Shown: positions 24,705-63,669, counted from the first letter of the stretch. The stretch is DNA of 64,000 nt from an uncultured bacterium (GCA_963727525.1 CAVSGO010000005.1:608001-672000); one strand, 5' to 3'. The notes: generated from the sequence alone by a model not told the origin. Program-made: numbers and translations.

Positions 24705-25286
24705 CTAATCCTCGAACAGCGCCTTCACGCTGCCCCACGAGGTGGGCGCGACCGGCGTGCTCCCGCCGGCGTAGTGGACTTCCACCGTCATGTCGGTGAA
24801 CACGACGTTCTGGCCCTCGCAGTCCTGAGCGTAGTTGAGGGGGCCGGCGATCAGGTAGTAGAGGCCGGTCTGGTCGGTGAGGAAGCGGAAGGTGAGGGTG
24901 GCCAGGTGCAGGTAGTCGCCGCCGAGGCAGGTGTCGCTGGTGGAGTCGACGCCGCCGAGGGCGGAGCCGGTGTGGTGGCAGATCGCGTCGTACTGCTCGT
25001 CGACGATCTCCACGGCTCCGTCGCAGCAGGCCTGCAGCACGGCCCACGAGAAGCGGGTGTAGCTGGCCGGCAGGAGGGTGGCATCCTCGGGCGGGAGCAC
25101 GAGGACGTAGAGCTGGAACTCCTCGTCGCCGCTGACATCGATGCTGTTGACGAGGTGATCGGATGCGGCCGACAGGCCGATCCGGGGAAACGTGATGGCG
25201 CGGGCGGTGGTCGACGCCAGGAGCGCGGTGAACAGGACGGCGACGGTGGCGAGCAGGAATCGGTGGCGCTGGAGTCCCTGGTTCAT
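24705..25286 (-). CDS. Secreted hypothetical protein with C-terminal SWGxxK motif
   Basis: Signal peptide ending TARA; C-terminus PVAPTSWGSVKALFED; GGGAGG RBS. Confidence 0.75.
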   Translation of the reverse strand: MNQGLQRHRFLLATVAVLFTALLASTTARAITFPRIGLSAASDHLVNSIDVSGDEEFQLYVLVLPPEDATLLPASYTRFSWAVLQACCDGAVEIVDEQYDAICHHTGSALGGVDSTSDTCLGGDYLHLATLTFRFLTDQTGLYYLIAGPLNYAQDCEGQNVVFTDMTVEVHYAGGSTPVAPTSWGSVKALFED

Positions 25287-25447
25287 GGCACCCTCCCGGG
25301 TCGATACATGAGATTTATCATCGTCATTTTAGCGGAATCGTCGTCCGGGAGCAAGAACCGTTGGCATAGCGTGGCGCGACCGGACGATTTCCGATACAAT
25401 CCAGGTTCGATTCCCGAGTGGTCCCCGTGACAAGGAATCTGGAGTTC

Positions 25448-27745
25448 ATGCCATTTTTTCACGAGTTGCGCCAGCGGCGGGTCCCCCAGTACGTCTCGGC
25501 CTACATCGTGGCCTCGTGGGGATTGATCCAGTTCATCCAGTTCCTCGAGGGACGTGTCGCCCTGTCGCCGCACGTGACGAACCTGGTGGCGCTGGCTCTC
25601 GCCCTGCTGCTGCCGGGCGTGGCGCTGCTGGCATGGTCCCAGGGACGACCCGGGCCAGACCAGCTCGGACGCGTGTCGCGCGTGGGATTGCCGCTCAACC
25701 TGGTCGTGGCGGCGGCGGTGCTCTTCGTGGTGTTCCACGACAAGGAACTCGGCGCGGTGACCACGAATATCTCGGTCACCGACGAGCAGGGCCAGGTGCA
25801 GCGACGCCAGGTACCGCGCGCAGCGTTCCGCAAGCAGCTCCTGATCTACGACCTGGCTGCCCCCGCCGATACGGCCCAGACCTGGCTCGGGCGCGGGCTC
25901 GGCACGCTCGTGGCCCTCGACCTCACGCAGGATCCCTTCCTCACGGTGCGGCGTCCAGAGCACGTGATGGGCTCGCTCATCGCGTCGGACTTCAAGGCGG
26001 GCGAAGACGTGCCCGCGCCCGTGATGCGTCGCATCGCGCGCGATCGCCACTTCCCGTACTACGTCACCGGGCGCGTGGCCGCCGCGGCCGGTGGCGTGCG
26101 CGTGACGACCGAACTGCAGGAGAGCGAGACGGGCCGTATGGTGGCGAGCCACGATATCACGGCCAGCGACCTCTTCGCGGCCTGCGACCAGATCTCGGCG
26201 CAGCTCAAGCGCGACCTCGAGATCCCCGAGAACCAGCTCGCCAGCCGCGAAGACCTGCCGGTCGCCGAGATCACCACGACCAACCGCGACGCCTTGCGTG
26301 CGTTCATCGAGGGTTCCTACGCGGCGATCTACGAGAACGACTGGGAGGCGTCCGTGGCAAAGCTGCAGCGTGCCGTGGTGCTGGATCCCACGTTCGCCCT
26401 CGCGCAGTATTCGCTCTCGGGCGCATTGTCGGTGACGGGCCATGGCGACAAGGCCACCGCCGCTGCGGATGCTGCGATGGCGCATCTCTACCGTCTTCCG
26501 GAACGCTCGCAGTTCCAGATCAAGTCGCTCTACTACCTCAACTTCAAGCAAGACCCCGACCGCACCCTCGCCGTGGTCGACATGTGGACGCAGCTCTACC
26601 CGCAGGACACCGACGCGTGGCGGCAGAAGGCGATGTTCCAGCGCGTGCGCGACGATCGCGCCGGAGCGATCGCGTCGTACGAGAAGGCGCTGGCGATCGA
26701 TCCCCAGCTCCACGACCTGCTGCTGACGATCGGCGACCTCTACCAGGACACCGGCGACTACGCGCGAGCCGAGAGCTCGTATCAGAAGTACTGCGACCGG
26801 TTTCCCACCAACACCAAGGCCTGGACGGCGCTAGCTACCCTGTACGAGACCGCGGGCAACCTCGACAAGGCGCGCAGCACCGACGAACACATCCTCATCC
26901 TCGATCCCGTCGACACGAAGGCGCAGCTCGCACTGGCGCGTCTGGCGATGCGGCGTGGCGACTTCGCCCGGTCGCGCGAGATCTTCGAGGAGTTCCTGGC
27001 GCACCACGACAAGGACATCGATCTCATGCGCGCCCACGACGGCCTGCGCAACCTGTGCAGCGCGGAAGGTCGCCTGCAGAACGCGATCGCGAATCTCGAG
27101 GCGTGGCACGTCGCGGCGTCGCACCTCTATAACCCGATCGAGCTGACGATGCGCTACGTCATGCATCTCGACCTCTATACCGAGGCCGGCCGGCCCGAGG
27201 ATGCAATCCGTATCGTGAATGAGCTTCGCGGGTCGGTGACGCCGCCCATCGACAAGCTCGTGGACTACGGACAGCTCGAGGCCCAGGTCGCCCTTGGCAA
27301 CCTCGACGGAGCCCGTGCCATCATCGACGGGATCGAGACCACCGTGGAGGCCCTCGATCTCGAGGTCTGGCGTCCCCATATCGATCGGGGTCGCGCCCTC
27401 GTGGCTGACGCCGAAGGCGACCTTGCCGACGCCGTGGCCTGCCGCCGCCGCGTGGCCGGCCGGATCACCGACAACTTGCAGGTGCTGCTGGAGCTCGCGA
27501 CCGCTCTGCGCAAGGCCGGTCAGCCCGACGAGGCGCTCGCGGTGCTCGATCACCTGACCAGGCTGGCCCCCGCGCTGCCGCCGATGCATCTGGAGTACGG
27601 CCGCATCCTCGCCGCACGCGGCGATGCCGAGCCCGCGCGCGAACACCTGCAGAAGGCGCTCGCTGCGTGGCAACAGGCCGACGACGGGTTCGCTCCTCGG
27701 GCCGAGGCGCGCCAGCTCCTCGCATCGCTCGGCACGGGAAGCTGA
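25448..27745 (+). CDS. Membrane-anchored TPR protein with TolB-N/CsgG-like domain
   Basis: FFHELRQRRV N-terminus plus 3 TM helices; many TPR units (LDPTFALA, YEKALAIDP); GGAG RBS. Confidence 0.85.
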   Translation: MPFFHELRQRRVPQYVSAYIVASWGLIQFIQFLEGRVALSPHVTNLVALALALLLPGVALLAWSQGRPGPDQLGRVSRVGLPLNLVVAAAVLFVVFHDKELGAVTTNISVTDEQGQVQRRQVPRAAFRKQLLIYDLAAPADTAQTWLGRGLGTLVALDLTQDPFLTVRRPEHVMGSLIASDFKAGEDVPAPVMRRIARDRHFPYYVTGRVAAAAGGVRVTTELQESETGRMVASHDITASDLFAACDQISAQLKRDLEIPENQLASREDLPVAEITTTNRDALRAFIEGSYAAIYENDWEASVAKLQRAVVLDPTFALAQYSLSGALSVTGHGDKATAAADAAMAHLYRLPERSQFQIKSLYYLNFKQDPDRTLAVVDMWTQLYPQDTDAWRQKAMFQRVRDDRAGAIASYEKALAIDPQLHDLLLTIGDLYQDTGDYARAESSYQKYCDRFPTNTKAWTALATLYETAGNLDKARSTDEHILILDPVDTKAQLALARLAMRRGDFARSREIFEEFLAHHDKDIDLMRAHDGLRNLCSAEGRLQNAIANLEAWHVAASHLYNPIELTMRYVMHLDLYTEAGRPEDAIRIVNELRGSVTPPIDKLVDYGQLEAQVALGNLDGARAIIDGIETTVEALDLEVWRPHIDRGRALVADAEGDLADAVACRRRVAGRITDNLQVLLELATALRKAGQPDEALAVLDHLTRLAPALPPMHLEYGRILAARGDAEPAREHLQKALAAWQQADDGFAPRAEARQLLASLGTGS

Positions 27746-27757
27746 GTCGGGCGCACG

Positions 27758-28162
27758 CTACCGCACCTCGCCCCAGTGCTCCCAGATCCGCAGGTCGTGG
27801 GTGAAGGTCTCGCCGAGCCAGCGCTCGGTGCGCGAGCGGTAGACCACGCGTGCCCGGATCCGCCGCGATTCGCGCTTGCGTGCGAAGAGGGCCGGCCGCG
27901 TGTCGAGGAAGACGCGCACCTCCTTGCCGGAGCGCAGCAACGGCAGATGCTTGAAGAGCGCCAGCTCCGACACCACCACCTCGCCCCCCACGCCGCGCAC
28001 GGGCCGCACGAACTCCACATGCACGTCGAAAGCCGTGGCCGGCCCGACGTTGGCGAGCACGAGGGTGAGGCGCTCGTCGGCGAACTCGACGTCGAGCAGC
28101 ACCTCGGGTTCGCCGGCGCGCGGCGGGCGCACGGTCACGCGTGGTTTCGTCTTGGTGGCCAT
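27758..28162 (-). CDS. Hypothetical protein co-transcribed with the tail-tube gene
   Basis: 134-aa beta-rich ORF (LANVGPATAFDV) starting 3 bp after the tube gene stop. Confidence 0.65.
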   Translation of the reverse strand: MATKTKPRVTVRPPRAGEPEVLLDVEFADERLTLVLANVGPATAFDVHVEFVRPVRGVGGEVVVSELALFKHLPLLRSGKEVRVFLDTRPALFARKRESRRIRARVVYRSRTERWLGETFTHDLRIWEHWGEVR

Positions 28163-28165
28163 GAC

Positions 28166-31073: not shown

Positions 31074-31117
31074 GTCAGCGCACGACTGTGTCAGCGCACG
31101 ACTGTGTCAGCGCACGA
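31074..31117. repeat. 16-bp tandem repeat (2.75 copies) overlapping the S8 peptidase stop codon
   Basis: GTCAGCGCACGACTGT at 31074 and 31090, partial copy at 31106. Confidence 0.9.
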
Positions 31118-34100
31118 GGGTCATCTTTTGCTGCGTGACGGTGTCTTCCGCCTCGAGCCGGCACACGTACGTGCCGCTGGCCATGGCCCGGCCGCTGGCA
31201 TCGCGTCCGTCCCAGGGGGCCGTGTGGCGGCCTGCAGGCAGGGACGCGTCGACGAGCGTGCGCACGTGGCGACCGCGTACGTCGTAAACGGACAGCTGGG
31301 CATGGCCGGCGCGCGCGAGGTCGTATGTCACCACCGTCTGCGGATTGAATGGGTTGGGCGCCACGGCCACCACGTGGGTGGCGGCGGGTACCCCGCCGGC
31401 GATGTCCGCGACGGGCACCTGCAAGTTCAGGCCCCAGCTATGCAGGGTGCCCACGTTACCTCCGGCGTTGTCGGTGACGAAGAGCAGCCAGTTGCCCTGG
31501 ATCTCTTCATCCAGGGCATCGTCGAGGCTGCCGGGGCCGTCCACGGAAAGCGTCGTGGGCCATGTGCCCACGAGGTTGTCGGCGTCGCCGCCGGTGTTGT
31601 CGTGCAGCACCACCGATGTGCCCACCGGACTGAAGAGCACCACGCGAAGGTCTCCAATGGCGGGATGCGTGATATCTACGTCTACAGTCAGTCCGGTGCA
31701 GATGCCGGAATCGGTCACGGTGATCGCGCTGACGATGCCGGGCTGGCCGTCGGGGATCGGTCGCTCCGGCTGGACCGCGGCGTGCACGACGGTGACCGGC
31801 ACCAGGGAGAGATCGACGCCGGTGACCTGCTCGGCGACTGCCACGGCGACGTCTCGGTGCTCATCGCGATAACCGTACTTGCGAGCCGTCACGGTGTAGG
31901 TGCCGGCATCGAAGGGGCCGAGGGTGAAGGCACCGTCGGCGACGGTGATCACCGACTGGCCAGCGCACGACACGGTGACGCCGACGGGCGGCGCTCCGTC
32001 GGCGAGCGCCACGTGACCGCTGATGGTGGCCGTGGCCGGTACCTGGACGGCGAGCAGGAAGGCGAGGGCATTCTCCACCAGGTCGCGTCCTGCCTGCGGA
32101 TCGAGCGCCCCCGCGTTGCAGGCGAGGAAGACGGTCTGCGCCGACTGCGGGGCGGCGTCATCGTCGTGGATGAGCAAGCCGGCCGACGACGGGAAGCCGC
32201 TCGGCACCAGGATCAGCTCGGCGTCGGCGGCGGGGTTGGCCGTATCCTGATCGTAGGTGTCCTGGTAGTCGAGGGCCAGGGGCAGCGGGATCACGTGCGG
32301 ATAGTTGAGAAGGCGGTGCTCGCTCGCACCGGCGGCCGCCACCAGGGCGCCGCCGAAGTCGCTGTGCGAGCCGGTGGTATGCAGCACCTCCTGCGCGAAG
32401 GTCGGAAAGCCCGACGAACCGTGGGCCAGGCGGGCCACCTCGCCGCCCTCGACGAGGAGCTTGCCGCCATCCTCGGCCCGCGCGATCAAGGACGCGCGCA
32501 GGCCCGGGAGCGCCTCCAGAGACGTGGCCGTGCCGCCGGCGGTGTAGACCACGACCTGATACGGCGTGAGCGCCTCGGCGGTGACGTCGGCCGGCGCGAG
32601 GGTGGTCACCTGGTAGCCGGCGTCGGCGAGCCACGTCGCGATAGGGCCACCGGCGTCGTCGATCACGCCCACTACGCCCGGCGCGTCGACCACGGTGAAG
32701 GCATGAGGGCCGCTCACCGTGCTGTTGGGGACCAGTGCGACATCGTAGGCCGTGAGCGTGTAGGTCACGGCAGCGCCGGCGTGCAGATCGGCGACGGCGA
32801 CCGGAAACTCGAGGGTGTAGGCGCCGCCGCTCTGGACCGCGAGGGTGTCCGGCCCCTGCGTGGCACCGCCGTCGATGGTCCAGGTGAGTTCCACGCGGTC
32901 GATGCCGAGGTTGTCGTCGGCCAGCGCCACCACCTGCGGCGGCCAGGTGGTGAGGGGCTGATCGCCAAGGGGCTGATGCAGGAGCGTGGGCGGTACCGTG
33001 TCCACGTCCACGACGAAGGTGTGCAGGTGGCCGGGCGCGTCGGCGGGTGCGCGCATGGTGAGACCGCTGGCGTCGGTGACCTCGAGATAGTAGTCGACCG
33101 TCGTGCCGGCGGTCTGCCCCGGGATGAGGCCCGACCACGTGTCGCCGCCCTGCGCGGCGAACGCCGCGGTCTGCCAGGCGCCGCCGTTGCCGCGCCAGTG
33201 CAACGCCGCCTGCGCCGGCGCAAGAGGGAGCCGGTCGGTGACCGTGGCGACCACCGCATAGGGCCCGATGGTGTCTTCCGTGTCGATGAGCGGCTCGTGC
33301 GCGATATTCGGTCCCCAGTAGGTGACGGCGGCATAGGCATCGAGAATGCCCCAGCCGGTGTCGTTGTCGGGCGTGGTGGGGTGGCTCGATGTCTCGCGCA
33401 ACGCGTCGCGCACCTGGATCGGTGTGAGGAAGGGTGCGCGCGCGAGCACGAGCGCGGTCACGCCGGCGGCGAGCGGGCAGCTCAGACTGGTGCCGCTGGC
33501 CGAGGTGTAAGTGGAGTCGTTGGTGGAGGCCGCGCAGGGCACGCTCAGGCCGAGGGCAGCCACATCGGGCTTGATGCGTCCGTCGTACGTGGGCCCCGGC
33601 GACGAGAAACCCGCCACGTTGCCGTTGAGATCCACCGCGCCCACGGTCACCACGCTGTCGCCGTCGGCAGGCGCGATGATGTGGCCGAAGTGGCCGCCGC
33701 CGCGCTCGTTGCCGGCGGAGTTCACCACGCATACGCCCAGGCTCACCGCAATGTCAGCCGCTATGGTGGTGACGGCCGTGTTGCCATCCAGGTCCGCGAA
33801 GGTGTACCAGTCGGAGTAGCCCAGGCTGCTGGACACGACATCGGCACCGAGCGACTCGAGCCACTCCAGGCCAGCCACCCAGTAGTCTTCCTCGATCGGC
33901 ACCTCCTGGCTGGTGTCCTCGGTCTTGGCGAGGATCACCGAGGCGCCGTACGCGGGGCCCACCACGTGGCCCGGCGCGAAGCCCATGAGCGTGGAGCACG
34001 TCTTGGTGCCGTGGTCGAACTGGCCGTTGGGATCGCCTGGCTCGTCGTTCACGTCGTCGTCGCCATTGATGAAGTCGTGGGTGGCGATGATGGGCAAGTG

Positions 34101-34793
34101 GGCGAGCGCGTCATGGGTGGTGCGGAAGCCGGTGTCGAGCATGCCGACAACGACGCCGCTGCCGTCGAACCCCAGCTCGTGCACGAAGGGCACGTCGATC
34201 TGCATGAGGCCGGCCAGGCTCGAGCCGTAGTCGAGCGTCCACTCCGTCGCGCTCTTCGCACGCAGGCGCGCGTTGGCCTCGCGCAGGGCCGCGAGGTCGG
34301 CCGGCGTGACGGGCGGCGGCGCCGGTCGCCGCGTGCGGGCCACGAGATCGATTCGCGTCACGCACGCGAGGTTGGCGATGCGGGCGATCTGGGCCGGCGA
34401 GGCGTCCACGCTCAGCGCGTCGAGCCAGCGGCTGCGCTGGCGCTCGCGCGCACCGGTGGCCAGCACCTGCGCCACGTAGGTCGCCGAAAGAGGCAGGTCG
34501 GTCGCGGTGACGAGAGCAGCGCCGCTGCGTGCCATCTTCTCCCGACGTTGCCGGGCGCGGGGCGAGAGAGCGACCTCGGCAACGGCCAGGGCGCGCGGCA
34601 TGGCGCCCGAGGCCACACCCTTGTCGGCAAACGTCACCCACAAGGCGTAGCTGCCATCGGCGCTGCGCCAGGGGTTGGTCGGCGTGGCGAGCGCCTGTTC
34701 CAGGCGCGGCGCGATGACGGGCGCCGGGTGGGCAGCGGCCGACCCGGTCAGGATCCCGGCGAGGATGGCGATGCGGTAAATCCATCTGGCCAT
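31107..34793 (-). CDS. Secreted S8 (subtilisin-like) serine peptidase with Ig-like, P-domain and FlgD-Ig C-terminal domains
   Basis: Signal peptide; catalytic LDTG, HGT and SGTSLS; SAGNE; IKPDV; proprotein-convertase P domain (DITH...DL...L.SP.GT); PNPFNP tail. Confidence 0.93.
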   Translation of the reverse strand: MARWIYRIAILAGILTGSAAAHPAPVIAPRLEQALATPTNPWRSADGSYALWVTFADKGVASGAMPRALAVAEVALSPRARQRREKMARSGAALVTATDLPLSATYVAQVLATGARERQRSRWLDALSVDASPAQIARIANLACVTRIDLVARTRRPAPPPVTPADLAALREANARLRAKSATEWTLDYGSSLAGLMQIDVPFVHELGFDGSGVVVGMLDTGFRTTHDALAHLPIIATHDFINGDDDVNDEPGDPNGQFDHGTKTCSTLMGFAPGHVVGPAYGASVILAKTEDTSQEVPIEEDYWVAGLEWLESLGADVVSSSLGYSDWYTFADLDGNTAVTTIAADIAVSLGVCVVNSAGNERGGGHFGHIIAPADGDSVVTVGAVDLNGNVAGFSSPGPTYDGRIKPDVAALGLSVPCAASTNDSTYTSASGTSLSCPLAAGVTALVLARAPFLTPIQVRDALRETSSHPTTPDNDTGWGILDAYAAVTYWGPNIAHEPLIDTEDTIGPYAVVATVTDRLPLAPAQAALHWRGNGGAWQTAAFAAQGGDTWSGLIPGQTAGTTVDYYLEVTDASGLTMRAPADAPGHLHTFVVDVDTVPPTLLHQPLGDQPLTTWPPQVVALADDNLGIDRVELTWTIDGGATQGPDTLAVQSGGAYTLEFPVAVADLHAGAAVTYTLTAYDVALVPNSTVSGPHAFTVVDAPGVVGVIDDAGGPIATWLADAGYQVTTLAPADVTAEALTPYQVVVYTAGGTATSLEALPGLRASLIARAEDGGKLLVEGGEVARLAHGSSGFPTFAQEVLHTTGSHSDFGGALVAAAGASEHRLLNYPHVIPLPLALDYQDTYDQDTANPAADAELILVPSGFPSSAGLLIHDDDAAPQSAQTVFLACNAGALDPQAGRDLVENALAFLLAVQVPATATISGHVALADGAPPVGVTVSCAGQSVITVADGAFTLGPFDAGTYTVTARKYGYRDEHRDVAVAVAEQVTGVDLSLVPVTVVHAAVQPERPIPDGQPGIVSAITVTDSGICTGLTVDVDITHPAIGDLRVVLFSPVGTSVVLHDNTGGDADNLVGTWPTTLSVDGPGSLDDALDEEIQGNWLLFVTDNAGGNVGTLHSWGLNLQVPVADIAGGVPAATHVVAVAPNPFNPQTVVTYDLARAGHAQLSVYDVRGRHVRTLVDASLPAGRHTAPWDGRDASGRAMASGTYVCRLEAEDTVTQQKMTLVR

Positions 34794-41617: not shown

Positions 41618-42307
41618 ATGAACAAATTTGCTCATGGGATGATGTTCGTCGGACTTTGCAGCCTCACGGCACTGGCCAGCGCCAGCGACCAGCCGCTGCG
41701 CATCAGCCAGGTCTACGGCGCCGGCGGCAACAGTGGCGCGATCTACAACCAGGACTACATCGAGCTGTTCAACATGTCGGGCGACGACGTGGACATCAGC
41801 GGCTGGTCACTCCAGTACGGCTCGGCGTCGGGCGACAACGCGACGGGATTCGGCACCTGCTCCAATTGCACGGTCGTGTTGCCGGAGGGGTCCATCGTGG
41901 CATCCTGCGGCTACTTCCTCGTCGGCATGGCGACAGGTACGAACGGCAGCGCCCTGCCGACCCTCGACGCGAGCGGCGCCATGAACATGAGCGGGTCGAG
42001 CGGCAAGGTCGCCCTGCTCAGCACCGACCTGGCCGCCGGCGCTTGCCCGCCCGGAAGCCCGGACCTGGTGGATCTCGTGGGATACGGCAGCGCAAACTGT
42101 TTCGAGAACGCGCCGGCGCCGGGCCTGAGCGCATCCACGGCGGCGTTCCGGGGGACCGGAGGCGTCGCGGACACCGACGACAACGCCGCCGATTTCGCAA
42201 TCGACGTTCCCGCACCGCGTAACAGCGCCACCGAGACCAATCCGAGCTGTGTCACGGTATCGGCGCAGCCCGCGACCTGGGGTACGCTGAAGGCGATGTA
42301 TCGTTGA
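41618..42307 (+). CDS. Secreted lamin-tail-domain protein with C-terminal TWGxxK motif
   Basis: ISQVYGAGGNSGA.Y..DYIELFN...VDISGWSLQY; DLVGYG; DTDDNAADF; ends VSAQPATWGTLKAMYR. Confidence 0.88.
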   Translation: MNKFAHGMMFVGLCSLTALASASDQPLRISQVYGAGGNSGAIYNQDYIELFNMSGDDVDISGWSLQYGSASGDNATGFGTCSNCTVVLPEGSIVASCGYFLVGMATGTNGSALPTLDASGAMNMSGSSGKVALLSTDLAAGACPPGSPDLVDLVGYGSANCFENAPAPGLSASTAAFRGTGGVADTDDNAADFAIDVPAPRNSATETNPSCVTVSAQPATWGTLKAMYR

Positions 42308-44891: not shown

Positions 44892-45998
44892 CTAGAAGGC
44901 CTCGCCGAAGTTGACGTAGAAGCCCGCGTCGCCGCGTCCGAACCCGAAGTCGAAGCGCAGGTTGGAACGGTCCGCCTCGCCTCCCACGCGCACGCGCAGG
45001 CCGAAACCGGCCGCCGGCCGCACCTCGCGCAGACGCAGCGCGTCCCAGCCATCGCCCACTTCCGCGGCCCCCGCGAAGACGACGGCGCCGAGGCGCCCCC
45101 GCAGCACGGTGCGTAGCTCCGCCTGGACGAGGGCCACGTGGGTGGTGAGGTAGCGGGTCTCGTAGTAGCCGCGCAGGCCGATGCGCTGGAGCTGATAGAA
45201 GGGCGCCGTGCCCGCCCCGAGAACCGAGACGAGCACCTGGCAGGCCACCACCCGCGTACCGCCGAGCGAGAGGAAGCGTCGCAGATCGAGGGTGGTGCGG
45301 GTGTAGGCGAAGTCGCTGCCCAGCCCCGGAGCATAGCGTGAGACGCCGAGTTGGTGCAGCCAGCCGCGGGTGGGATAGAAGAGGGCATCGCGGGTGTCGT
45401 AGGTGAGCACGGCGCCCACGCCCACCAGCGTCCCCCCATCCGCACCGGTGACGGCGCCGCTGCGCAGGAACGAGCTTTCCCCCGTGCCGGTGATGCGCAC
45501 ATGCTCCCACTCCAGGCGCGCCCCCAGGTACAGGCCGCGCGCGAGTGCGCGGCTCACGGTGACGTCCGCGCGCGGGTAGTGCGGCGTGAGGGTCTCCTCG
45601 TCGGCCTCGCGCGTATCGTCGCCGAGCCCGTAGAACCTGGTCGGGAACTTCAGGTACCCGACCATGCCGGCAGCATGCCAGGTGTCGTCATGCCACCAGA
45701 CGTCGCCGGCGATGAGGGCCATGAGCTGGTCGGCGGTGGTGACGATGATCGTGGGATTGAAGGTGCTGGGTCGGCGCGCGGGGTCGTCCGAGAGACGCAG
45801 GTAGAACCCGGTGGAGGCTCCGAAGGCCAGCTCCGTCTCCGGCGAATAGGCGAGCACCGGCAACACGTAGAGCAGGCCGCTGCGAGGCGGCGGCGAGCCT
45901 GGCTCCCCGCCGACCAGGGAATCGACGTCCGCGACCTGGGCGAAAGCGGGAGGCGCGAGCAACCCGAGAACGACGAGATGCAAGACGCGAACGCGCAT
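44892..45998 (-). CDS. BamA/TamA (Omp85) family outer membrane barrel protein
   Basis: Signal peptide; YDTRD...PTRG; LRGY; terminal FYVNFGEAF. Confidence 0.85.
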
Positions 45999-46068: not shown

Positions 46069-46959
46069 TCAGAACACGCTCACCTTGAAGAATGCCTTGG
46101 GATTGCGGCGCATCTGGTCGAGCAGGCGATCGAGCGACTGCAGCGTGGAGTCGGCCTGGTCATACAGGGCTTCGTCGGTGAGCAGACGCCCCGCCGAACC
46201 CTCGCCCGCCTCCAGGCGCTTCAGGATGGTGGAGCTGGTGCGCGAGAGCGTGACCAGCTCGGCCATCGCCGAATCGAGATGGGCCGTCGCCTGGCGCGTG
46301 GACACGAGGGTGCTGTCGAGCTTGCCATCGCCCAAGGCCAGGGAGAGCGACTCCGTCAGGTCCACGACGTTTCCCAGCGCGTCGCGTAGCCGGGAGCGAT
46401 TCTCCTTCACCATGCCCTCGACCTCGAGCAGCGTCCGCTGGGCCGTGGCCAGCGTGCCCACGAGGTCACCCTCGGTGCGGAGCTGGCCGATGAAACCGCG
46501 CACCTCCTCCGACAACGACGTCATCTCGTCGAGGGCCTTGTTCACCTTGTCGCCCAGCGCCACGATCGACGCGGCGTTGCGCCCCTGGAATTCGTGACCC
46601 GGAGCCACCGGCGTCCCCGTGCCGGGATCGATCTCCACGACGATCTCACCCACGATGCCCTTCTGCACGAGTGTGACGCTCGCGTCGTCGTGCAGCGCGA
46701 TCCAGCTGTCGAGATCGAAGTGCACCCGCACCTTCTGCGGCATGAAGTCGAAGGCCGTCACCGTACCCGAGCGGATGCCGCGCACCTGGACGCGGTCGCC
46801 CACCTTCAGGCCCTCGACAGCAGTGAAGTCGGCCGTGAACTCGTGCGTACCGCCCTTCAGGTGCATGTTCTTGAAGAACATGAGGCCACCGATCAGGATG
46901 AGCATCGCGACGGTCACCGTGATGCCGACCTGGATCTCTCGCCTTCGCATCTGATCCAT
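46069..46959 (-). CDS. mlaD: MCE/MlaD family protein
   Basis: N-terminal TM helix; GLKVGDRV.VRGI..G.V MCE motif; helical C-region. Confidence 0.88.
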   Translation of the reverse strand: MDQMRRREIQVGITVTVAMLILIGGLMFFKNMHLKGGTHEFTADFTAVEGLKVGDRVQVRGIRSGTVTAFDFMPQKVRVHFDLDSWIALHDDASVTLVQKGIVGEIVVEIDPGTGTPVAPGHEFQGRNAASIVALGDKVNKALDEMTSLSEEVRGFIGQLRTEGDLVGTLATAQRTLLEVEGMVKENRSRLRDALGNVVDLTESLSLALGDGKLDSTLVSTRQATAHLDSAMAELVTLSRTSSTILKRLEAGEGSAGRLLTDEALYDQADSTLQSLDRLLDQMRRNPKAFFKVSVF

Positions 46960-46969
46960 GCGTGACTCC

Positions 46970-47776
46970 TCAGAAGACGCCCAGGGGGCCCTCGGCCCGC
47001 CCTTCGATGAACTGACGGACGGCAGCGTGGTCGGTGTGCTTCACCTCGTCCACGGTGCCGACATATTCGATCTTACCAGCATTGAGCATGGCCATGCGAT
47101 CGGCCACCTTGTATGCACTCTGCATATCGTGCGTCACCACGATCGACGTGACGGAAAGCTCTTGCTGCAGTTTGAGGATCAGGTCGTTGATCGCGTCGCC
47201 CGTGATGGGGTCGAGCCCGGTCGTGGGCTCGTCGTAGAGCATGTACTGCGGCTGCATCGCGATCGCGCGCGCCAGTCCGGCGCGTTTCTTCATGCCGCCC
47301 GACAGCGAGCTGGGCAGCTTGTCCTCGGTACCCTCCAGACCCACCATCTCGAGGCACTCGCAGGCGCGCGCGCGGATGCGGTCGCGGTCCCAGTCGGTGT
47401 GTTCCTTGAGGATGAGGCCGACGTTCTCACAGATGGTCATCGAGTCGAAGAGTGCCGCGCCCTGGAAGAGCATGCCGAAGCGCTTGCGCAGGTCCATCAG
47501 CGACGCGCGGTCGAGCGTGGTAATCTCCACGCCCTCCACCCACACGGATCCCGTATCCGGTTCCAGTAGCCGCACGATGTGCTTCAGGAGCACCGACTTG
47601 CCCTCGCCGCTGCGGCCGATCACCACCATGGTCTCGCCACGGCGGATGGTGAGATCACAGTGTTCGAGCACCTGCTTGGCCCCGAAGTGCTTGCTCAGGC
47701 CCTGTACGGCGATGCCGTCGAAGGAGCCCGGATCGGCGAGCTTGAGGTCGGGAGGCGGCGGAACGGCGGTGCTCAT
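46970..47776 (-). CDS. mlaF: MlaF-type ABC ATP-binding protein
   Basis: GRSGEGKS; FQGAALFDS; LSGGMKKR; YDEPTTGLDP; start MSTAV overlaps the mlaE stop. Confidence 0.92.
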   Translation of the reverse strand: MSTAVPPPPDLKLADPGSFDGIAVQGLSKHFGAKQVLEHCDLTIRRGETMVVIGRSGEGKSVLLKHIVRLLEPDTGSVWVEGVEITTLDRASLMDLRKRFGMLFQGAALFDSMTICENVGLILKEHTDWDRDRIRARACECLEMVGLEGTEDKLPSSLSGGMKKRAGLARAIAMQPQYMLYDEPTTGLDPITGDAINDLILKLQQELSVTSIVVTHDMQSAYKVADRMAMLNAGKIEYVGTVDEVKHTDHAAVRQFIEGRAEGPLGVF

Positions 47777-48567
47777 TGGGAGCCTCCGAAGATGATCTGC
47801 AGGAAGATCGTACCCAGGACGTAGTCCGCCACGAGCACGCCGAGGCAGGTGGCGACCACGGCCTGCATGGTCGACTTGCCGACACCCTCGGCGCCGCCCT
47901 GCGTGTTGAACCCGTAATAGATCCCACTCATGGCGATGACGCCGCCGAAGAAAAACGTCTTCGCCAGACCGCTGATCACGTCGCCGATGTCGAAGAAGTA
48001 GCGCGAGCCCTCCGCGAATGTCTGCGGGGTCACCTGCAGGGTGATCATCGCCACGACCATGCCACCGAAGATGGCGATGAAGTCGGCGATCGCGGTGACG
48101 ACGGGCATCATCAGCACCGCCGCCACGAAGCGTGGCAGGCCGAGATACTCGATGGGCTCGATGGCCATGATCTCCATGGCGTCGAGCTGTTCCGTCACCT
48201 TCATCGTCCCCAGTTCCGCGGCATAGCTGGCGGCCAGGCGGCTGCCCACGACCAGCGCCGCGAGCACCGGCCCCATCTCCAGGATCACGCTCTTGGTGAT
48301 CACCGTGCCCAGAAACACGAGGGGCACGAAGCCCTCCATCTGGTAGCCGGTCTGCACCGCCGTGATGCCACCCGTGAACACGGCCGTCGTGATCACGAGC
48401 GGCAACGAGCCCACGGCGACGATGTGCATCTGCTCGTAGATCTCGTGGCGCAGCTTCCAGGCCTTGTTCAGATGGCAGACGATGCCGCACAGCATGAGGT
48501 AGCCGTGCCCGATGCTCGCGAGCCCCTCCATGACCATGTGGCCGATGAGCTGAAACAACCTCGTCAT
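47773..48567 (-). CDS. mlaE: MlaE family ABC permease
   Basis: EMGPVL...AAELGTMKVTEQLDA; GGAEGVGKST. Confidence 0.93.
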   Translation of the reverse strand: MTRLFQLIGHMVMEGLASIGHGYLMLCGIVCHLNKAWKLRHEIYEQMHIVAVGSLPLVITTAVFTGGITAVQTGYQMEGFVPLVFLGTVITKSVILEMGPVLAALVVGSRLAASYAAELGTMKVTEQLDAMEIMAIEPIEYLGLPRFVAAVLMMPVVTAIADFIAIFGGMVVAMITLQVTPQTFAEGSRYFFDIGDVISGLAKTFFFGGVIAMSGIYYGFNTQGGAEGVGKSTMQAVVATCLGVLVADYVLGTIFLQIIFGGSQ

Positions 48568-52645: not shown

Positions 52646-55600
52646 ATGTCACGCATACGGGCCATACCGGCGCGGTTCGCCGTATGTCTGTTCGCGATCG
52701 CCGCGAGCGCAGCCGCCGTCGGCGCCAGCTCGTCACCACTGTCCACGAGCGTCGTCGCGGCGCTTGCCGACGCCGACCGCGACGTCTGGCGCACCGACGG
52801 GCGCCTCACGATCTGGGTCTTCTTCGACGGCAAGGATCTCGCGGGCGCCGCACTGTCGCGGGCGCTGGCCGGCGCGGAGTCGGCCCTCACCGACCGCACT
52901 GCACGTCGGCGCGCCAAGATGGTACCGAAGGGCGCCTCGCTCGTGGACTGGAGCGATCTGCCCGTGTCGCCCGTACGCGTCGCCGCGGTGGCGGCGACCG
53001 GCGCGGAACTGCGGGTCCGCAGCCGCTGGCTCGATGCGGTCAGCTGCCTGGCGACAGCCACCCAGGTCCGCGCGATCGCCGCGCTGCCCGGCGTGCGCCG
53101 GGTGAGCCTCGTGGGACGGAGCACCACGTTGCGCGCGGACGCAACGCGGTCCCTCGACATCGAGGCCCTGCCGACGAGCGACGCCTGGTCACTGGACTAC
53201 GGCGCCAGCCTCGCCACGCTGGAGCAGATCAACGTGCCGCTCGTGCACGAGCGGGGCTACACGGGACACGGAGTACTGATCGGCATGCTCGACACCGGCT
53301 TCGACGTCACCCACGTCGCCTTCTCGCATCTCACCGTGGTCGCCGCACACGACTTCGTGAACGACGACGACATCGTGGCCGACGAGCCCGGCGACCCCAT
53401 CGAGCAGGACTCGCACGGCACCAAGGTCCTCTCGGCGATCGCGGGTTTCGCGCCCGGCCATCTCGTAGGACCGGCATATCGGGCTTCGTACGTCCTCGCC
53501 AAGGCCGAACAAAGCGGCGTGGAGGAACCTTTCGAGGAAGACTGGTGGGTCGCCGGCATCGAATGGGCGGAGACCCAGGGCGTCGATGTCGTCTCGAGCA
53601 GCCTAGGCTACTGGCAGTTTCACCAGTTCGAAGAACTCGACGGTGACACCGCACCGTCGACGATCGCGGGCGATCGCGCGGCCGCCCATGGCATCGTCGT
53701 CTGCAATGCGTGCGGCAATTTCCGCAACACCGAATATCAGCACATCTGCGCCCCCGCCGACGGCGACAGCGTGATCGCCGTGGGTGCCGTGGACTCCGTG
53801 GGACTCTGCGCGGACTTCTCGTCGCCAGGCCCCAGCTACGACGGTCGCATCAAGCCAGACGTCACGGCCCGGGGAGTTCGCGTACCCGTCGTGAACCCGC
53901 AGGACGACGTCTCCTACGACGCGACCGGTGGTACCTCCCTCAGCGGCCCGCTCGTGGCCGGGGTCGCCGCCCTCCTGCTCGAGCGGCTGCCCGGCCTCAC
54001 GCCCATGCAAGTGCGCGACGCGCTGCGCGAGACCGCGAACCATGCCGGGAATCCCGACAACGACTACGGCTGGGGAATCGTCGACGCCGACGCCGCTCTC
54101 CGCTACTGGGGCCCCGACATCGCCCACACGCCCCTGGGCATCACCGACGACACCGTCGGCCCCTACACCATCGTCAGCGCCATCACCGATCGGTTCGACG
54201 TCGATCCATCCCAGGCCTTCCTGCACTACCGCATCAACGGCGGTACCTGGCAGACGTTGGCCCTGACGCACGTCAGCGGCACGCGCTTCGATGGGTCCAT
54301 TCCGGGTCAACCCTACGTCAGTCTCGTGGAATATTACCTCGAGGCCGGCGACAACCAGGGCTGGGTGACGACGCTGCCCGGGCGTGGCCCCGACGCGCCA
54401 TACGCCTTCGAGGTGAGTCCCGACACCACGCCGCCCATGCTCACGCATGCGCCGCTCGCAGACATGTACATCGGCCTGTGGCCACCCCTGGTCACGGCCA
54501 CGGCCACGGACGACCGTGGCGTCGATCGCGTCGAGCTACGCTTCCACATCAACGACGGCGACGAGCAAGGGCCATTCTCGCTGCCCGAGGGAGCGGACAG
54601 CACGTATACGCTCGCGTTTCCGCTGGCGACCGGCGCACTCCAGGAGGACGACCGGATCACCTACACCCTCACCGCCGTCGACATCTCCTTGAACGGGAAC
54701 GCGACGAGCACCGATCCCGTCGCGTTCACGGTGTTCGGGGCCGGCGACGGACTGGTGCTGCTCATCGACGATGCTCCGGACGGCAGCGCCTCGCTCATCG
54801 CCGATCGGCTCGCCGGCCTCGGCTATCACCTCACCTGGCGCGGCCCATCCGAGGTGACGGCCTCGGATCTGGGATACCAGGCGCTCGCGATCCTCGCCAG
54901 CGGTATCAACCTGACACCGGCGAGCGATCCCGCCCTGCGGGCCTTGCTGGCAGGCTGGATGGCGGATGGCGGGCGCCTCCTGGTCGAGGGCGGAGAGATC
55001 GGCTACCGCGCCACCCACATGGGAAGCTTCGGCACCTTTGCGGCCGACGTGCTGCACTGCAGCGGCTGGGCCGGCGACTGTGGCGGCGCGCTGACCGTGC
55101 CCGCCGGGCAAGATCCGCATCCGCTGCTACAGACGCCCCATGCCATCTCGCTGCCGCTCGCGATCGATTGCGTCGACTACGATGCGCAGGACTGCGTCAC
55201 GCCGGCCGGCGACGCCGTGGGCGCGCTGGTGCCGGCGAATTTCCCTGCGGCGGCCGGACTCGTGGTGTACGACGACAATCCGAAACCCGAGGCGGTACAG
55301 CTGGTCTATCTACCCTTCGCGCTGGGCTCCCTGGCCGACCCGGACCAGGCCGGCGACCTGATCGAGAACGCGGTCGTCCTTCTCCTTGCCGAGGAACTCC
55401 CGGCCACCGCGACGATCGCCGGCACGGCACGCATGTCCAGCGAGAGCGACAACGCGGGCATCACCGTGATGGCCGGCTCCCTCACGACGACGACGACGAC
55501 CGACGGCAGCTACCTGCTCGGACCGCTCTTCGCGGGCACGTACGTCGTCACGGCCTCCCATGAAGGCTACACGACGCTGCAGACCGAGGTGACGCTCACG

Positions 55601-56362
55601 AGCGGCCAGCAACTCGCCGGCATCGATTTCCTCCTGCCGCGAACGTTCACCGAGCAGTACCGCGCGCAGCCGATCGCGCCCATTCCCGATGGCGATCCCG
55701 AAGGGCTCACGAGCATCATCTCCGTGCCCCCCGGTGGCCAGCACGGCTTCGACAGCCCCATTCTCGACGTGTCCATCGACATCGATCTCGGGCACCCGTC
55801 GATCAGCCAGCTCGCAGTCACGCTCACGAGCCCCGCCGGCACGCAGGTGACGCTCCACGATCACTCCGGCGGCGAGACGCACAACCTGCACGGCAACTGG
55901 CCCCACACGTTGACGGTGGATGGCCCGGGTAGCCTCGACGACGTCCAGGGCGAGAGCATCGCCGGCGACTGGGTGCTGCACGTGGTGGACACGATCCCGA
56001 CCGGGGCGGGCACGCTCTACTCCTGGTACCTGAATTGTCTGATGCAGCTGCCGCCGGTGGGCGTGGTAGCCAGCGCCCTTCCTGCCGCGACATGCCTGGC
56101 CGGCAACGCGCCGAATCCGTTCAATCCGCGCACGACGTTGCGCCTGGAACTGGCCAGGCCCGGCCCAGTGGAGCTGGCGATCTTCGACCTGCGAGGCCGC
56201 CTTCTGCGCCATCTCGTGGACGGCGCGCTGCCGGCGGGATACCACGACGTGGTGTGGCAGGGCGACGATGACGCTGGCCGCGCCCTGAGCAGCGGCGTGT
56301 ACCTCGCGCGTCTGCGTGCCGACGGCGCGGTGCAGAGTCGCAAGATGCTGCTTGTGCGATGA
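52646..56362 (+). CDS. Secreted S8 serine peptidase with Ig-like, P-domain and FlgD-Ig domains (paralog of 31107-34793)
   Basis: Signal peptide at MSRIRA; LDTG, HGT and GGTSLS triad; IKPDV; PNPFNP tail. Confidence 0.93.
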   Translation: MSRIRAIPARFAVCLFAIAASAAAVGASSSPLSTSVVAALADADRDVWRTDGRLTIWVFFDGKDLAGAALSRALAGAESALTDRTARRRAKMVPKGASLVDWSDLPVSPVRVAAVAATGAELRVRSRWLDAVSCLATATQVRAIAALPGVRRVSLVGRSTTLRADATRSLDIEALPTSDAWSLDYGASLATLEQINVPLVHERGYTGHGVLIGMLDTGFDVTHVAFSHLTVVAAHDFVNDDDIVADEPGDPIEQDSHGTKVLSAIAGFAPGHLVGPAYRASYVLAKAEQSGVEEPFEEDWWVAGIEWAETQGVDVVSSSLGYWQFHQFEELDGDTAPSTIAGDRAAAHGIVVCNACGNFRNTEYQHICAPADGDSVIAVGAVDSVGLCADFSSPGPSYDGRIKPDVTARGVRVPVVNPQDDVSYDATGGTSLSGPLVAGVAALLLERLPGLTPMQVRDALRETANHAGNPDNDYGWGIVDADAALRYWGPDIAHTPLGITDDTVGPYTIVSAITDRFDVDPSQAFLHYRINGGTWQTLALTHVSGTRFDGSIPGQPYVSLVEYYLEAGDNQGWVTTLPGRGPDAPYAFEVSPDTTPPMLTHAPLADMYIGLWPPLVTATATDDRGVDRVELRFHINDGDEQGPFSLPEGADSTYTLAFPLATGALQEDDRITYTLTAVDISLNGNATSTDPVAFTVFGAGDGLVLLIDDAPDGSASLIADRLAGLGYHLTWRGPSEVTASDLGYQALAILASGINLTPASDPALRALLAGWMADGGRLLVEGGEIGYRATHMGSFGTFAADVLHCSGWAGDCGGALTVPAGQDPHPLLQTPHAISLPLAIDCVDYDAQDCVTPAGDAVGALVPANFPAAAGLVVYDDNPKPEAVQLVYLPFALGSLADPDQAGDLIENAVVLLLAEELPATATIAGTARMSSESDNAGITVMAGSLTTTTTTDGSYLLGPLFAGTYVVTASHEGYTTLQTEVTLTSGQQLAGIDFLLPRTFTEQYRAQPIAPIPDGDPEGLTSIISVPPGGQHGFDSPILDVSIDIDLGHPSISQLAVTLTSPAGTQVTLHDHSGGETHNLHGNWPHTLTVDGPGSLDDVQGESIAGDWVLHVVDTIPTGAGTLYSWYLNCLMQLPPVGVVASALPAATCLAGNAPNPFNPRTTLRLELARPGPVELAIFDLRGRLLRHLVDGALPAGYHDVVWQGDDDAGRALSSGVYLARLRADGAVQSRKMLLVR

Positions 56363-56384
56363 ACGTGCGTGGACCGCGCCGACC

Positions 56385-58543: not shown

Positions 58544-58549
58544 GGTCCG

Positions 58550-59531: not shown

Positions 59532-59532
59532 C

Positions 59533-60599: not shown

Positions 60600-61067
60600 A
60601 TGATGAAGACATCCCTGACACTCACCATCCTGCTGCTGGTCGCCGACACCGCCGCGGCGGCTGGCGTCGGCTACGGACCGCGTCTCGGCTACACGCACGA
60701 CTCGGGACTCGATCAGGCTCATGTCGGCGGGCAGGCCGTGATCGGCGACTTCGGCATGAACGTCGTGGTCATCCCCTCCGTGGAAGTGGGATTCGGCAGC
60801 GAATCCACGCTGCTCGCCATCAACGGCGACGTGGTCTACGATTTCACCGAATTCGCCACCAATCGCTGGGGGTTCTACGCCGGCCTCGGCCTGGCCTTCA
60901 ACCGCTGGGACCTGCCCCACGCCACGAGCACCGACATCGGCATGAATGCCGTGATCGGCACCACGTGGACTCTGCCTAACCTGCGCAACGAATTCTTCGG
61001 CGAGCTACGACTGGGCCTGGAAGACAGTCCCGATTTCAAGCTGACTGTCGGTGTCAACGTCTTCTGA
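60600..61067 (+). CDS. Small outer-membrane beta-barrel protein
   Basis: Signal peptide; about 8 amphipathic strands; terminal Phe; GAGGAG RBS. Confidence 0.75.
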   Translation: MMKTSLTLTILLLVADTAAAAGVGYGPRLGYTHDSGLDQAHVGGQAVIGDFGMNVVVIPSVEVGFGSESTLLAINGDVVYDFTEFATNRWGFYAGLGLAFNRWDLPHATSTDIGMNAVIGTTWTLPNLRNEFFGELRLGLEDSPDFKLTVGVNVF

Positions 61068-62499: not shown

Positions 62500-62543
62500 T
62501 CCAAGACGCCCCGCTGACCCGAGCGTTTCGGGCCGTACGGAAA

Positions 62544-62567
62544 CCCCGCCACCTTTCGGCGGCGGGG
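62544..62567. terminator. Hairpin between convergent genes
   Basis: CCCCGCC-ACC-TTTC-GGC-GGCGGGG; T-run on the minus strand. Confidence 0.6.
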
Positions 62568-62622
62568 CAGCCTTATCGGACATCACTGCCGCGACGGCAG
62601 CGAAATTTTCATTTGATTCCGC

Positions 62623-63669
62623 TCAGCGGTAGATGGTCTTGATCGCCCCCCAGCTCGTCTTCTCCGTCGGCACCGAGGGGTTGATCGTGATCATGATCGA
62701 ATCGTCATCCGTACGCGCCTCGGCGTCGTGAACCAGTACCGTCACATTCACGGGGCCCACGGGAAGATCGCTGGCCTGGACCTGGATGGACGGACCATTG
62801 CCCAGCGGCGTCCCTCCGTTGTAGGTCCACTCGTAGGTGAAAGGCCCGGTGCCCCCCGTGACCTCGGCCATGAAGTCGATCACCTGGTCGTCTTCGAAGA
62901 CGGTGCCGTCCACCGGCGACGTGATCGTCACATGCATGCCGATCTCACCCTCGATCGTGCTCGAGATGCCCGGCGTATCGGGATTGTTGGAGTGCCACGC
63001 GACGGTGTAGAGGATCTGCCCGTTGGGCTGAAGTCCGTAAGGCGTCTGGCCGGGCGTGGAATCGTCGTAGAGCTCGGAACCCAGGTCGTTGGGCGTATTC
63101 ATCAGCGGATTGGCCGTATCGACCGGGATGGTGGTCAGGCTGAAGGTTCCCTGGAACGAGTCTAGACCGATCTGAGCATTGATCTCGTTGATGCCCCCCT
63201 GATAAGGCTGGTGATCCGTGCCCAGCAGAATCCCGCCACCGCGGACGTCGAGGTTGGTGTAGTAATTCTCGGTGAGATTCTGGCCCTCGCCCGTCCAGCG
63301 GCCGGACCAGTAGGACGAGATCATCCGGGCGTCGCAGATGATTTCATTCGAGGGCCGACCATTGAACCAGTTGGCGATGGCGGCAAAGTCCGTCGGGTAG
63401 TTGTCGGCGCCGGTCGAAAGGTCGAACACCCAGATCTGATCGAACGAGCCCGTCGCCAGAGCGGCCGCCGCCTGCCCGTCGGCCGACACGTTCACGTACG
63501 TTGCCGTGGCCCCTGCATTGATGAGAGTGGTGTAGATATTGGCGGCGTCCGAGTTGTATCCCCCACTGATGTTCACCATCAGCACATTGCTTGCGTGAAC
63601 CGCGTTAGCCGCGAATAGCACCGCAGAGAGAGTGATGAATATTGTTGCAATAGCTGATTTCGCGCGCAT
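62623..63669 (-). CDS. Secreted protein with PKD/Ig-like domain and C-terminal SWGxxK motif
   Basis: Signal peptide; V.ITSP.DG...GGTGPFTYEW PKD-like domain; ends VPTEKTSWGAIKTIYR; AAGGAG RBS. Confidence 0.8.
   Translation of the reverse strand: MRAKSAIATIFITLSAVLFAANAVHASNVLMVNISGGYNSDAANIYTTLINAGATATYVNVSADGQAAAALATGSFDQIWVFDLSTGADNYPTDFAAIANWFNGRPSNEIICDARMISSYWSGRWTGEGQNLTENYYTNLDVRGGGILLGTDHQPYQGGINEINAQIGLDSFQGTFSLTTIPVDTANPLMNTPNDLGSELYDDSTPGQTPYGLQPNGQILYTVAWHSNNPDTPGISSTIEGEIGMHVTITSPVDGTVFEDDQVIDFMAEVTGGTGPFTYEWTYNGGTPLGNGPSIQVQASDLPVGPVNVTVLVHDAEARTDDDSIMITINPSVPTEKTSWGAIKTIYR

Follow-up and report, generated by a model that had tools for sequence, protein, structure and literature searches.

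A short C-terminal tail on exported proteins of uncultured bacteria, probably an undescribed address label for the cell envelope

Introduction

C-terminal sorting signals have repeatedly led to new machineries of the bacterial envelope, among them sortase, exosortase, rhombosortase and the secretion system of type IX (T9SS). This work concerns a tail of about 17 residues at the C-terminus of exported proteins of an uncultured bacterium, noticed on three proteins encoded in a stretch of 64,000 nucleotides (G000:C5:608001-672000, called here the window, i.e. the whole stretch of DNA that was analysed). The genome it belongs to (G000) has 4,664,706 bases in 8 contigs, about 67% G+C and a completeness of 96.7%. 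The tail is apparently undescribed, and it is probably an address label for the cell envelope of a kind not described before.

The nearest described signal is the type-A C-terminal domain (CTD) of T9SS cargo proteins. Each stands at the very C-terminus of Sec-exported, surface-type proteins, the two are found in the same genomes with their genes intermixed, they are interchangeable on homologous passengers, and both have a conserved Lys a few residues before a basic C-terminus. In distinction to the CTD, which has 40-100 residues, the tail has 17-20, is not a beta-sandwich and has no profile similarity to it; the two are never combined on one protein, and relatives that carry a T9SS can be without the tail. 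In the parts of PMC10994853 drawn on here, the folded CTD buries about 1,850 Å2 in SprA and PorV in the solved translocon complexes, and the sole conserved translocon-contacting residue of the type-A CTD is an almost invariant, functionally important Lys near the C-terminus. The parts of PMC11969387 used in this work describe short CTDs of Prevotella intermedia, composed of 43-55 residues in three strands, and report the last 22 residues of Hbp35 as the absolutely required part.

The signals of the LPXTG/sortase, PEP-CTERM/exosortase, GlyGly-CTERM/rhombosortase, MYXO-CTERM and IPTL-CTERM type resemble the tail in being short, modular and strictly C-terminal. Like the tail, these tripartite signals are carried by many unrelated exported passengers, "choice-of-anchor" domains included, and MYXO-CTERM is found on one homologue of a tagged lamin-tail-domain (LTD) protein of the window; the tail differs from them in having neither a hydrophobic membrane-spanning segment nor a cluster of basic residues behind the motif. 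The C-terminal helices of MinD, FtsA and PBP5/6 are likewise short, helix-prone peptides rich in Trp, aliphatic residues and Lys or Arg, but the tail is on the outer side of the inner membrane, has residues that are near-invariant across phyla and is no more amphipathic than shuffled sequences. The lipoprotein Lpp, ending in ...YRK, is, like the tagged proteins, an envelope protein whose conserved C-terminus is aromatic-basic and contains an essential Lys; the Lys of the tail is, unlike that of Lpp, the fifth residue from the end, and the tail is carried by diverse passengers.

Results

Three tagged proteins in the window

Translation of the genes at 24705-25286, 41618-42307 and 62623-63669 gave the tails PVAPTSWGSVKALFED, VSAQPATWGTLKAMYR and VPTEKTSWGAIKTIYR, each followed by the stop, as they had been given in a sequence-only reading of this DNA. 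The ending shared by the three proteins is [ST]-W-G-x-[VIL]-K-x-[LMI]-[FY]-x-stop. The genes and their tails are the following.

24705..25286, minus strand: P0003, a 193-residue exported protein of unknown family, tag-terminated (translation, Pfam)
24705..24761, minus strand: tail of P0003, STPVAPTSWGSVKALFED and stop, a variant with two residues beyond the aromatic (translation)
41618..42307, plus strand: P0002, a 229-residue exported LTD protein, tag-terminated (LTD 43.1 bits)
42254..42307, plus strand: tail of P0002, TVSAQPATWGTLKAMYR and stop (translation)
62623..63669, minus strand: P0004, a 348-residue exported protein without a Pfam family, tag-terminated (translation, Pfam)
62623..62676, minus strand: tail of P0004, SVPTEKTSWGAIKTIYR and stop (translation)

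All three proteins start with a basic n-region followed by a hydrophobic h-region, as judged by a crude rule, which agrees with the signal peptides reported for them before. Their bodies are unrelated, as had also been noted: with the tails trimmed, none matches any other tagged protein at E<1e-5. The passenger labels fared unequally; the LTD of 41618-42307 was recovered with 43.1 bits, and the PKD domain ascribed to 62623-63669 was not, this protein having no Pfam family at E<=0.01. P0003 has a single sequence homologue, its only Pfam match is a sub-threshold one to DUF6970, and its closest Atlas clusters are Krumholzibacteriota hypotheticals. No CTD family was found in the three proteins with either Pfam or NCBIfam.

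Genome-wide census of the tail

The whole of G000 was translated into 40,231 six-frame, stop-to-stop open reading frames (ORFs) of at least 60 residues, amounting to 6.9 million residues. The expression WG.[VLIM]K..[FYW] had 57 matches in this set, 54 of which lay at most 5 residues before the stop, compared to 2.1 terminal matches expected from uniform placement. Neither the reversed ORF sequences nor 20 shuffles of the last 30 residues gave a single match. Exactly one residue follows the aromatic in 43 of the 54 terminal matches and 2-5 extra residues do so in the other 11. A profile of the entire block of about 17 residues detected 81 ORFs with a terminal match at E<=0.2, W-S and F-G variants included.

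The consensus of the tail, over some 17-20 residues, is V-x-[VT]-E-x-x-[ST]-W-[GS]-x-[VIL]-K-[SA]-L-[FY]-R-stop. Upstream of the Trp the conserved positions are Val at -7 (39/54), Glu at -4 (36/54) and Thr or Ser at -1 (40/54), and from the Trp on the block reads W-G-x-[VIL]-K-[SAT]-[LMI]-[FYW]-R, about 17 residues in all, with Arg as the final residue in 32 of the 54 terminal matches. At the key positions of 77 tails we found Trp in 71, Phe in 5 and Leu in 1, then Gly in 56 and Ser in 21, and Lys in 76 with one Arg. An upstream Cys is not a general feature, being present within 22 residues in 34/76 tails, while 38% of background windows have one; its frequency peaks locally at -10 and -16.

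For counts by gene we used our own crude gene calls (3488 genes, 88% of the G000 DNA). There are 78 tagged genes with a median length of 228 residues, and 228 genes for T9SS type-A CTD proteins with a median of 724 residues, the median of all 3488 being 326; no gene carries both tail and CTD. Starts resembling a signal peptide, identified by a lenient rule that over-calls, are present in 73/78 tagged proteins, 200/228 CTD proteins and 1341/3179 others. In signal-peptide frequency the tagged set behaves like known Sec-dependent T9SS cargo, and the motif is very strongly enriched at the C-termini of signal-peptide-type proteins (54/57 terminal, 73/78 with such a start), as had been supposed. On exported proteins the tail is a genuine tag, modular and strictly terminal.

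None of the existing models of Pfam or NCBIfam covers the tail in any of 71 proteins (three of the window, searched with NCBIfam at E<=1, and 68 from other genomes at E<=0.01), and it is assigned to no sorting family of either library in 71/71, in agreement with the novelty claimed for it. Literature searches with the motif strings of the tail, which gave a single unrelated hit, and on type IX secretion in the phylum found no account of it.

Outside the window one perfect tail (...TTWGAVKSLFRDEG...) is present at G000:C5:444548-444898 on the minus strand, where 42 more residues follow it in a frame of 116 residues. The stop may have been lost here, or the tagged gene may be in decay.

Passenger proteins and modularity

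With the tails trimmed, 47 of the 78 tagged proteins have no tagged paralogue within G000, and 20 of the 78 have a CTD-bearing homologue there. At E<=0.001, Pfam assigns no family to 52 of the 68 tagged proteins that were taken from other genomes; the remaining sixteen belong to LTD, CHRD, right-handed beta-helix/PMP repeats, CBM20 with X25, DUF11 or GEVED, and one further match, to ThuA, is below the cut-off. The NCBIfam choice-of-anchor models E, X and V are above their cut-offs on three of the 68, and models C and F are found below cut-off on two more.

For the LTD protein P0002, 333 homologues were found at E<=1e-5. The tail expression is matched by 54 of the 120 listed and about 14 more show by eye the variants WGxAK or WGxTK, and the more distant of those listed carry at the C-terminus a T9SS CTD (7, precomputed Pfam) or MYXO-CTERM (1, by its source name). 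The tail replaces the T9SS CTD or MYXO-CTERM on homologous passengers. The description as a modular terminal tag on diverse passengers is upheld by both sets of data, the 47/78 without tagged paralogue and the exchange of tail, CTD and MYXO-CTERM among the LTD homologues.

Taxonomic range

A 30-base DNA pattern equivalent to W-G-x-[VIL]-K-x-[LMIV]-[FY]-x-stop was searched in a phylum sample of 201 genomes (Krumholzibacteriota by record labels). G000 has 41 matches and 0 when the pattern is read backwards. The pattern is present in 194/201 genomes of the sample, and in 120/125 of those at least 90% complete, with up to 68 matches per genome; the reversed control gave 2 hits across all. Seven of the 201 are pattern-free, and five of these are at least 94% complete (G005, G034, G007, G099 and G169). 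Relatives of one genus can differ: in genus g31, G007 has 0 matches and G003, G148 and G171 have 4-6, and in g33, G169 has 0 whereas G006 and G051 are tag-bearing. The tail was not found in G005, G034 and G169 by a weak check of five tag-free genomes either, made with a 229-position profile that had the whole LTD protein as its first row.

A stricter pattern, applied to one genome per GTDB species, matched at least 133 stretches in other metagenome-assembled genomes (MAGs). Among the matches listed, all in MAGs, the labels are Eisenbacteria, Krumholzibacteriia, Latescibacterota, Zixibacteria, Gemmatimonadota, Fibrobacteraceae/Fibrobacter sp., UBP1 and "bacterium", all of them the submitters' own. 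The chromosome G202, labelled "Candidatus Latescibacteria" (locus L037), gave the same matches as G019, a member of the phylum sample, and is one genome with it, so that submitters' labels and GTDB grouping disagree for some tag-bearing MAGs.

Type IX secretion in tag-bearing genomes

The setting of the tail is of T9SS type, in that it is located at the C-terminus of Sec-exported-type proteins in a genome that encodes a T9SS. In G000, SprA is over its cut-off, with 480 bits summed over one frame of 2280 residues, and PorU has 436 bits (cut-off 420) with a PorV-family gene alongside; a PorZ-like/PorQ-like cluster and at least 9 PorV-family matches are present in addition. PorP/SprF (PF11751) was not found in G000, a result of little weight given that the control genomes gave no match either. 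SprA is over its cut-off in 5/5 and in 22/22 further tag-bearing genomes and in 0/14 control genomes. All 27 tag-bearing genomes tested encode the SprA translocon, and the tag is restricted to bacteria that have a T9SS. The number of CTDs per genome is 48-150 or more in all 24 phylum genomes tested, the seven pattern-free ones included.

The three tagged genes of the window had been described as unlinked. Genome-wide this is not quite so, for tag genes are clustered with the genes of T9SS cargo: a tag gene adjoins a CTD gene 28 times in G000, compared to 10.2±3.1 in 2000 label shuffles (maximum 22), and CTD-CTD adjacencies are clustered similarly (33, with 14.8 expected). An example from the window is the tagged gene 24705-25286 (minus), which sits 122 nt upstream of this same-strand gene:

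22051..24582, minus strand: T9SS cargo, an 843-residue beta-helix protein with type-A CTD (...TSVTLVR-stop)

Four PorV/PorQ-family genes of G000 directly follow genes for CTD proteins (C7:793515-794519, C7:673084-674016, C7:509189-510121 and C3:388650-389511), and three of the four preceding CTD proteins are large (949-1373 residues). These pairs recall the type-B CTD/PorP-like carrier pairs of Bacteroidota. In the PorU-PorV cluster, beside an NHL-repeat protein, there is a gene for a protein of 1134 residues (G000:C7:800902-804306; L160:14903-18307) that has no Pfam family and matches only positions 603-653 of the SprA model. Such a second weak SprA match, in a frame of 1032-1442 residues, is also present in all five distant genomes checked.

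Comparison with described C-terminal signals

Tripartite sorting signals were considered and rejected, because the protein ends 1-5 residues past the aromatic in 54/54 tails and the NCBIfam models miss the tail. The statement that it is not LPxTG, PEP-CTERM or GlyGly-CTERM is therefore borne out, there being no hydrophobic stretch and no NCBIfam sorting model on it. The beta-signal of outer-membrane proteins, an aromatic as last residue of a beta-barrel with alternating hydrophobics, was likewise rejected, the aromatic of the tail being penultimate or earlier, the passengers being soluble (LTD, CHRD, CBM20) and the strand moment not exceeding that of shuffled sequences. The third signal rejected is the T9SS type-A CTD as such (TIGR04183/PF18962/PF13860); the tail is a block of about 17 residues, not a beta-sandwich, and motifs B and D (GxY) are absent, whereas the CTD is a sandwich of 7 strands, or at least 3 strands and 40 or more residues in its shortest known forms, with motifs B, D and E (K/R). 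A CTD profile rebuilt from the TIGR04183 hits of G000 matched 0/78 tagged proteins.

Predicted shape of the tail

An AlphaFold2 model of P0002, built from 66 sequences, has a mean predicted local distance difference test score (pLDDT) of 86.9, with the body above 90 and the tail at about 60. Residues 197-217 are predicted as coil and residues 218-228 (P-A-T-W-G-T-L-K-A-M-Y) as a helix of pLDDT ~60 that is not packed against the body. The helical hydrophobic moment of the tail is 0.40 (shuffles 0.31±0.15) and the strand moment 0.38 (shuffles 0.31±0.17); neither stands out. The amphipathic helix that the tail had been said to resemble is thus not established, considering both the moment of 0.40 against 0.31±0.15 and the pLDDT of the predicted helix.

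Candidate readers

The recurrent neighbours of tag genes in G000 are CTD proteins, an insertion sequence (IS)-like gene and a loose Ser/Thr-kinase/TPR cluster; the last two we judged to be incidental. No sortase-like gene was seen beside tag genes at the loci inspected, and no genome search was aimed at exosortase, rhombosortase or sortase. Secretins were rejected as a discriminating reader, having 1-3 copies in 27/27 genomes tested. A complex prediction of PorV (alignment of 26 rows) with the 44-residue C-terminal end of the LTD protein (66 rows) had a score of 0.00 and is evidence neither way.

G000 has a second PorU-family protein, which (G000:C7:1681884-1686260; L169:9884-14260, minus strand) matches Peptidase_C25 with 157 bits and the PorU model with 158 bits, below cut-off. 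It has a T9SS CTD of its own, two tag genes lie immediately upstream of its gene and SpoIID/LytB and GH3 genes downstream, and it has full-length matches in family f1. NCBIfam release 20 contains the models NF052324, "putative type IX secretion system sortase PorU2", and NF052325, "putative type IX sorting system protein PorV2", to which G000 has sub-threshold matches (C7:790005-792422 and C7:967258-968259); a search of the literature on PorU2/PorV2 found nothing relevant.

The dedicated export or anchoring system of the sequence-only reading therefore stands in one half, the sorting tag, which is modular, terminal and linked to signal peptides. The other half, a dedicated machinery, we can only infer, because none was found.

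Discussion

That the tail is a sorting or retention tag of some kind is very likely. As to how it works, we tentatively favour, at somewhat less than an even chance, a compact surface-sorting tag that is recognised in trans and acts through the T9SS pathway. After Sec export the tail would be exposed on a flexible linker and bound by a trans-acting envelope factor of this pathway, for instance an outer-membrane carrier, which would take the passenger to the cell surface or keep it there. The tail would so do the job of the 70-90-residue CTD of its sister proteins, to which it has no homology; the near-invariant Trp, Gly/Ser and Lys would be contact residues, the Lys alternatively a reactive residue. 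We infer the recognition in trans, the surface destination and the link to the T9SS itself. Such a link is made conceivable by the short CTDs and Hbp35, in the parts of PMC11969387 used, together with the conserved Lys described in those of PMC10994853.

Several results weigh against a role of the tail in the T9SS. Co-occurrence with SprA is confounded by descent, because all tag-bearing genomes belong to related FCB-type lineages. The T9SS does not bring the tag with it, as the five pattern-free genomes at least 94% complete carry 81-147 CTDs. The profiles do not resemble each other; hhalign gives a probability of 0.1% for the 40-residue tail with the 95-residue CTD and of 0.3% for the last 22 with the last 24 residues, and in right-justified profiles z<=1.0 at every offset. 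The burial of ~1,850 Å2 that PMC10994853 gives, in the parts used, for the CTD cannot be reproduced by a peptide of 17 residues, which speaks against such a peptide being read as the CTD is. No conserved neighbour other than CTD proteins was found at 70 de-duplicated foreign loci, 20 loci of low-count genomes and the 78 tag genes of G000. Three T9SS-related candidates for the reader were also rejected: the second PorU-family C25 protein, which is matched in 30/30 genomes, tag-free ones included (435 bits in tag-free G099, above the 294 bits in tag-rich G012), the copy number of the PorV/PorQ family (5-11 copies in all 29 genomes), and the PorV2-like protein C7:967255-968271, with full-length matches in 30/30 genomes. 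Neither the PorU paralogue, the PorV family and the PorV2-like protein nor the secretins are discriminating, because they are present in tag-free genomes too. A multi-purpose reader may outlast the loss of its substrates, so that, for the candidates tried, these tests rule out no more than a dedicated reader that is lost together with the tag.

The main alternative, a docking or retention tag independent of the T9SS, is possible, if rather doubtful. The tail would bind an abundant envelope component, non-covalently or covalently via the invariant Lys, the partner being an outer-membrane protein, lipopolysaccharide or another glycan, peptidoglycan or surface-attached T9SS cargo, in the manner of a dockerin- or Lpp-type tether; the outer membrane, if crossed at all, would be crossed by another route or piggy-back on the partner. 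The short exposed peptide on a flexible linker predicted by AlphaFold2 would suit such a tag. The Lys in 76/77 tails, with one Arg, suggests a specific contact or chemistry over mere charge, and the C-terminal Lys of Lpp, joined to peptidoglycan by L,D-transpeptidases, is the analogy. Docking is also favoured by the passengers, which are small binding-type modules often encoded beside large CTD-protein genes, by the full T9SS kept in tag-free relatives, and by the secretins, a possible other route, in the 27/27 genomes tested. However, no receptor or enzyme candidate co-varies with the tag or adjoins it, the Lys, unlike that of Lpp, does not end the protein, and passengers of extracellular type still need a route through the outer membrane.

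A signal of an undescribed sorting system with its own reader, a receptor or a Lys-acting enzyme, distinct from the T9SS CTD and from the sortase, exosortase and rhombosortase routes, is a further possibility, to be held with reserve. In Krumholzibacteriota, Eisenbacteria, Latescibacterota and uncultured phyla allied to them, the proteins that this system would fasten or export make up about 2% of the proteome.

It is improbable that the tail is a self-sufficient, membrane-targeting amphipathic helix that would lay the protein on a membrane leaflet and need no dedicated reader, as in MinD, FtsA and PBP5. Trp, aliphatic residues, Lys and a terminal Arg make up a composition typical of interfacial helices, AlphaFold2 draws a helix of 11 residues, and no machinery was found. 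Against this, neither the helical nor the strand moment stands out, the pLDDT of the helix is ~60, and its 9-10 residues are short. The Trp, Gly/Ser and Lys are moreover near-invariant across several phyla, together with a conserved upstream V-x-V-E, and such invariance is unusual for lipid-binding helices, which tolerate exchanges of Lys with Arg and of aromatics.

A very short, diverged type-A CTD, reduced to the last two strands and read directly by SprA and PorV, is unlikelier still. Lys, hydrophobic residues and a terminal basic residue are present in both (K-[SA]-L-[FY]-R-stop in the tail, K-M-x-L-V-[KR]-stop in the CTD), tail and CTD occur in the same genomes, and the parts of PMC11969387 used give a precedent in the shortening of CTDs and the essential last 22 residues of Hbp35. 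The profile comparisons, however, are at chance, motif B and the GxY of motif D are absent, 0/78 tagged proteins match the CTD profile, and no forms of intermediate length were seen.

We regard it as very improbable that the tail is not a sorting signal and is instead a pro-peptide or a recognition site for a periplasmic protease or PDZ protein, acting in processing or turnover: C-terminal peptides are classic PDZ ligands, and the strict C-terminal position and the aromatic plus basic residue at the end would fit, but the 11/54 tails with 2-5 residues beyond the aromatic mean that no free carboxylate in fixed register is needed, the tail fills the slot of a known anchor on choice-of-anchor passengers and swaps with CTD and MYXO-CTERM, and about 2% of genes carry it, in a repertoire that resembles cargo.

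If it is true that the tail feeds the T9SS, the reading tentatively favoured here, this system can take a signal much smaller than the folded CTD at present considered necessary. The tail marks about 80 proteins in G000 and occurs across several poorly known phyla that are frequent in soil and sediment. It has no name in the curated libraries, so that the tagged proteins are annotated as unrelated hypotheticals; with a model of the tail, much of the surface proteome of these bacteria would be defined in a single step and the prediction of localisation improved. As a 17-residue peptide with three near-invariant residues it is also a handle for finding the reader.

Other features of the window

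The window contains three further genes for CTD proteins, two of them for ordinary T9SS cargo that is given as context:

19541..20140, plus strand: small 199-residue T9SS CTD protein of FlgD_ig type
31107..34793, minus strand: S8 subtilase with P-domain and T9SS CTD, 1228 residues; ordinary T9SS cargo
52646..56362, plus strand: paralogous S8 subtilase with P-domain and T9SS CTD, 1238 residues

Each of the two subtilases, 31107-34793 and 52646-56362, has also a CarboxypepD_reg domain. A small barrel of the Omp85 superfamily (368 residues; 44892-45998, minus strand) is encoded just downstream of MlaD-, ABC-ATPase- and MlaE-type genes (46069-48558, minus strand). The IS-like gene mentioned above lies 85 bases beyond the end of the window (G000:C5:672085-673194) and encodes a protein of 369 residues with a Cys-rich N-terminal stretch. 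Of its copies, 23 are near-identical (98-100%) and 7 more distant, and 10 of the 30 are at most 3 genes away from a tag gene.

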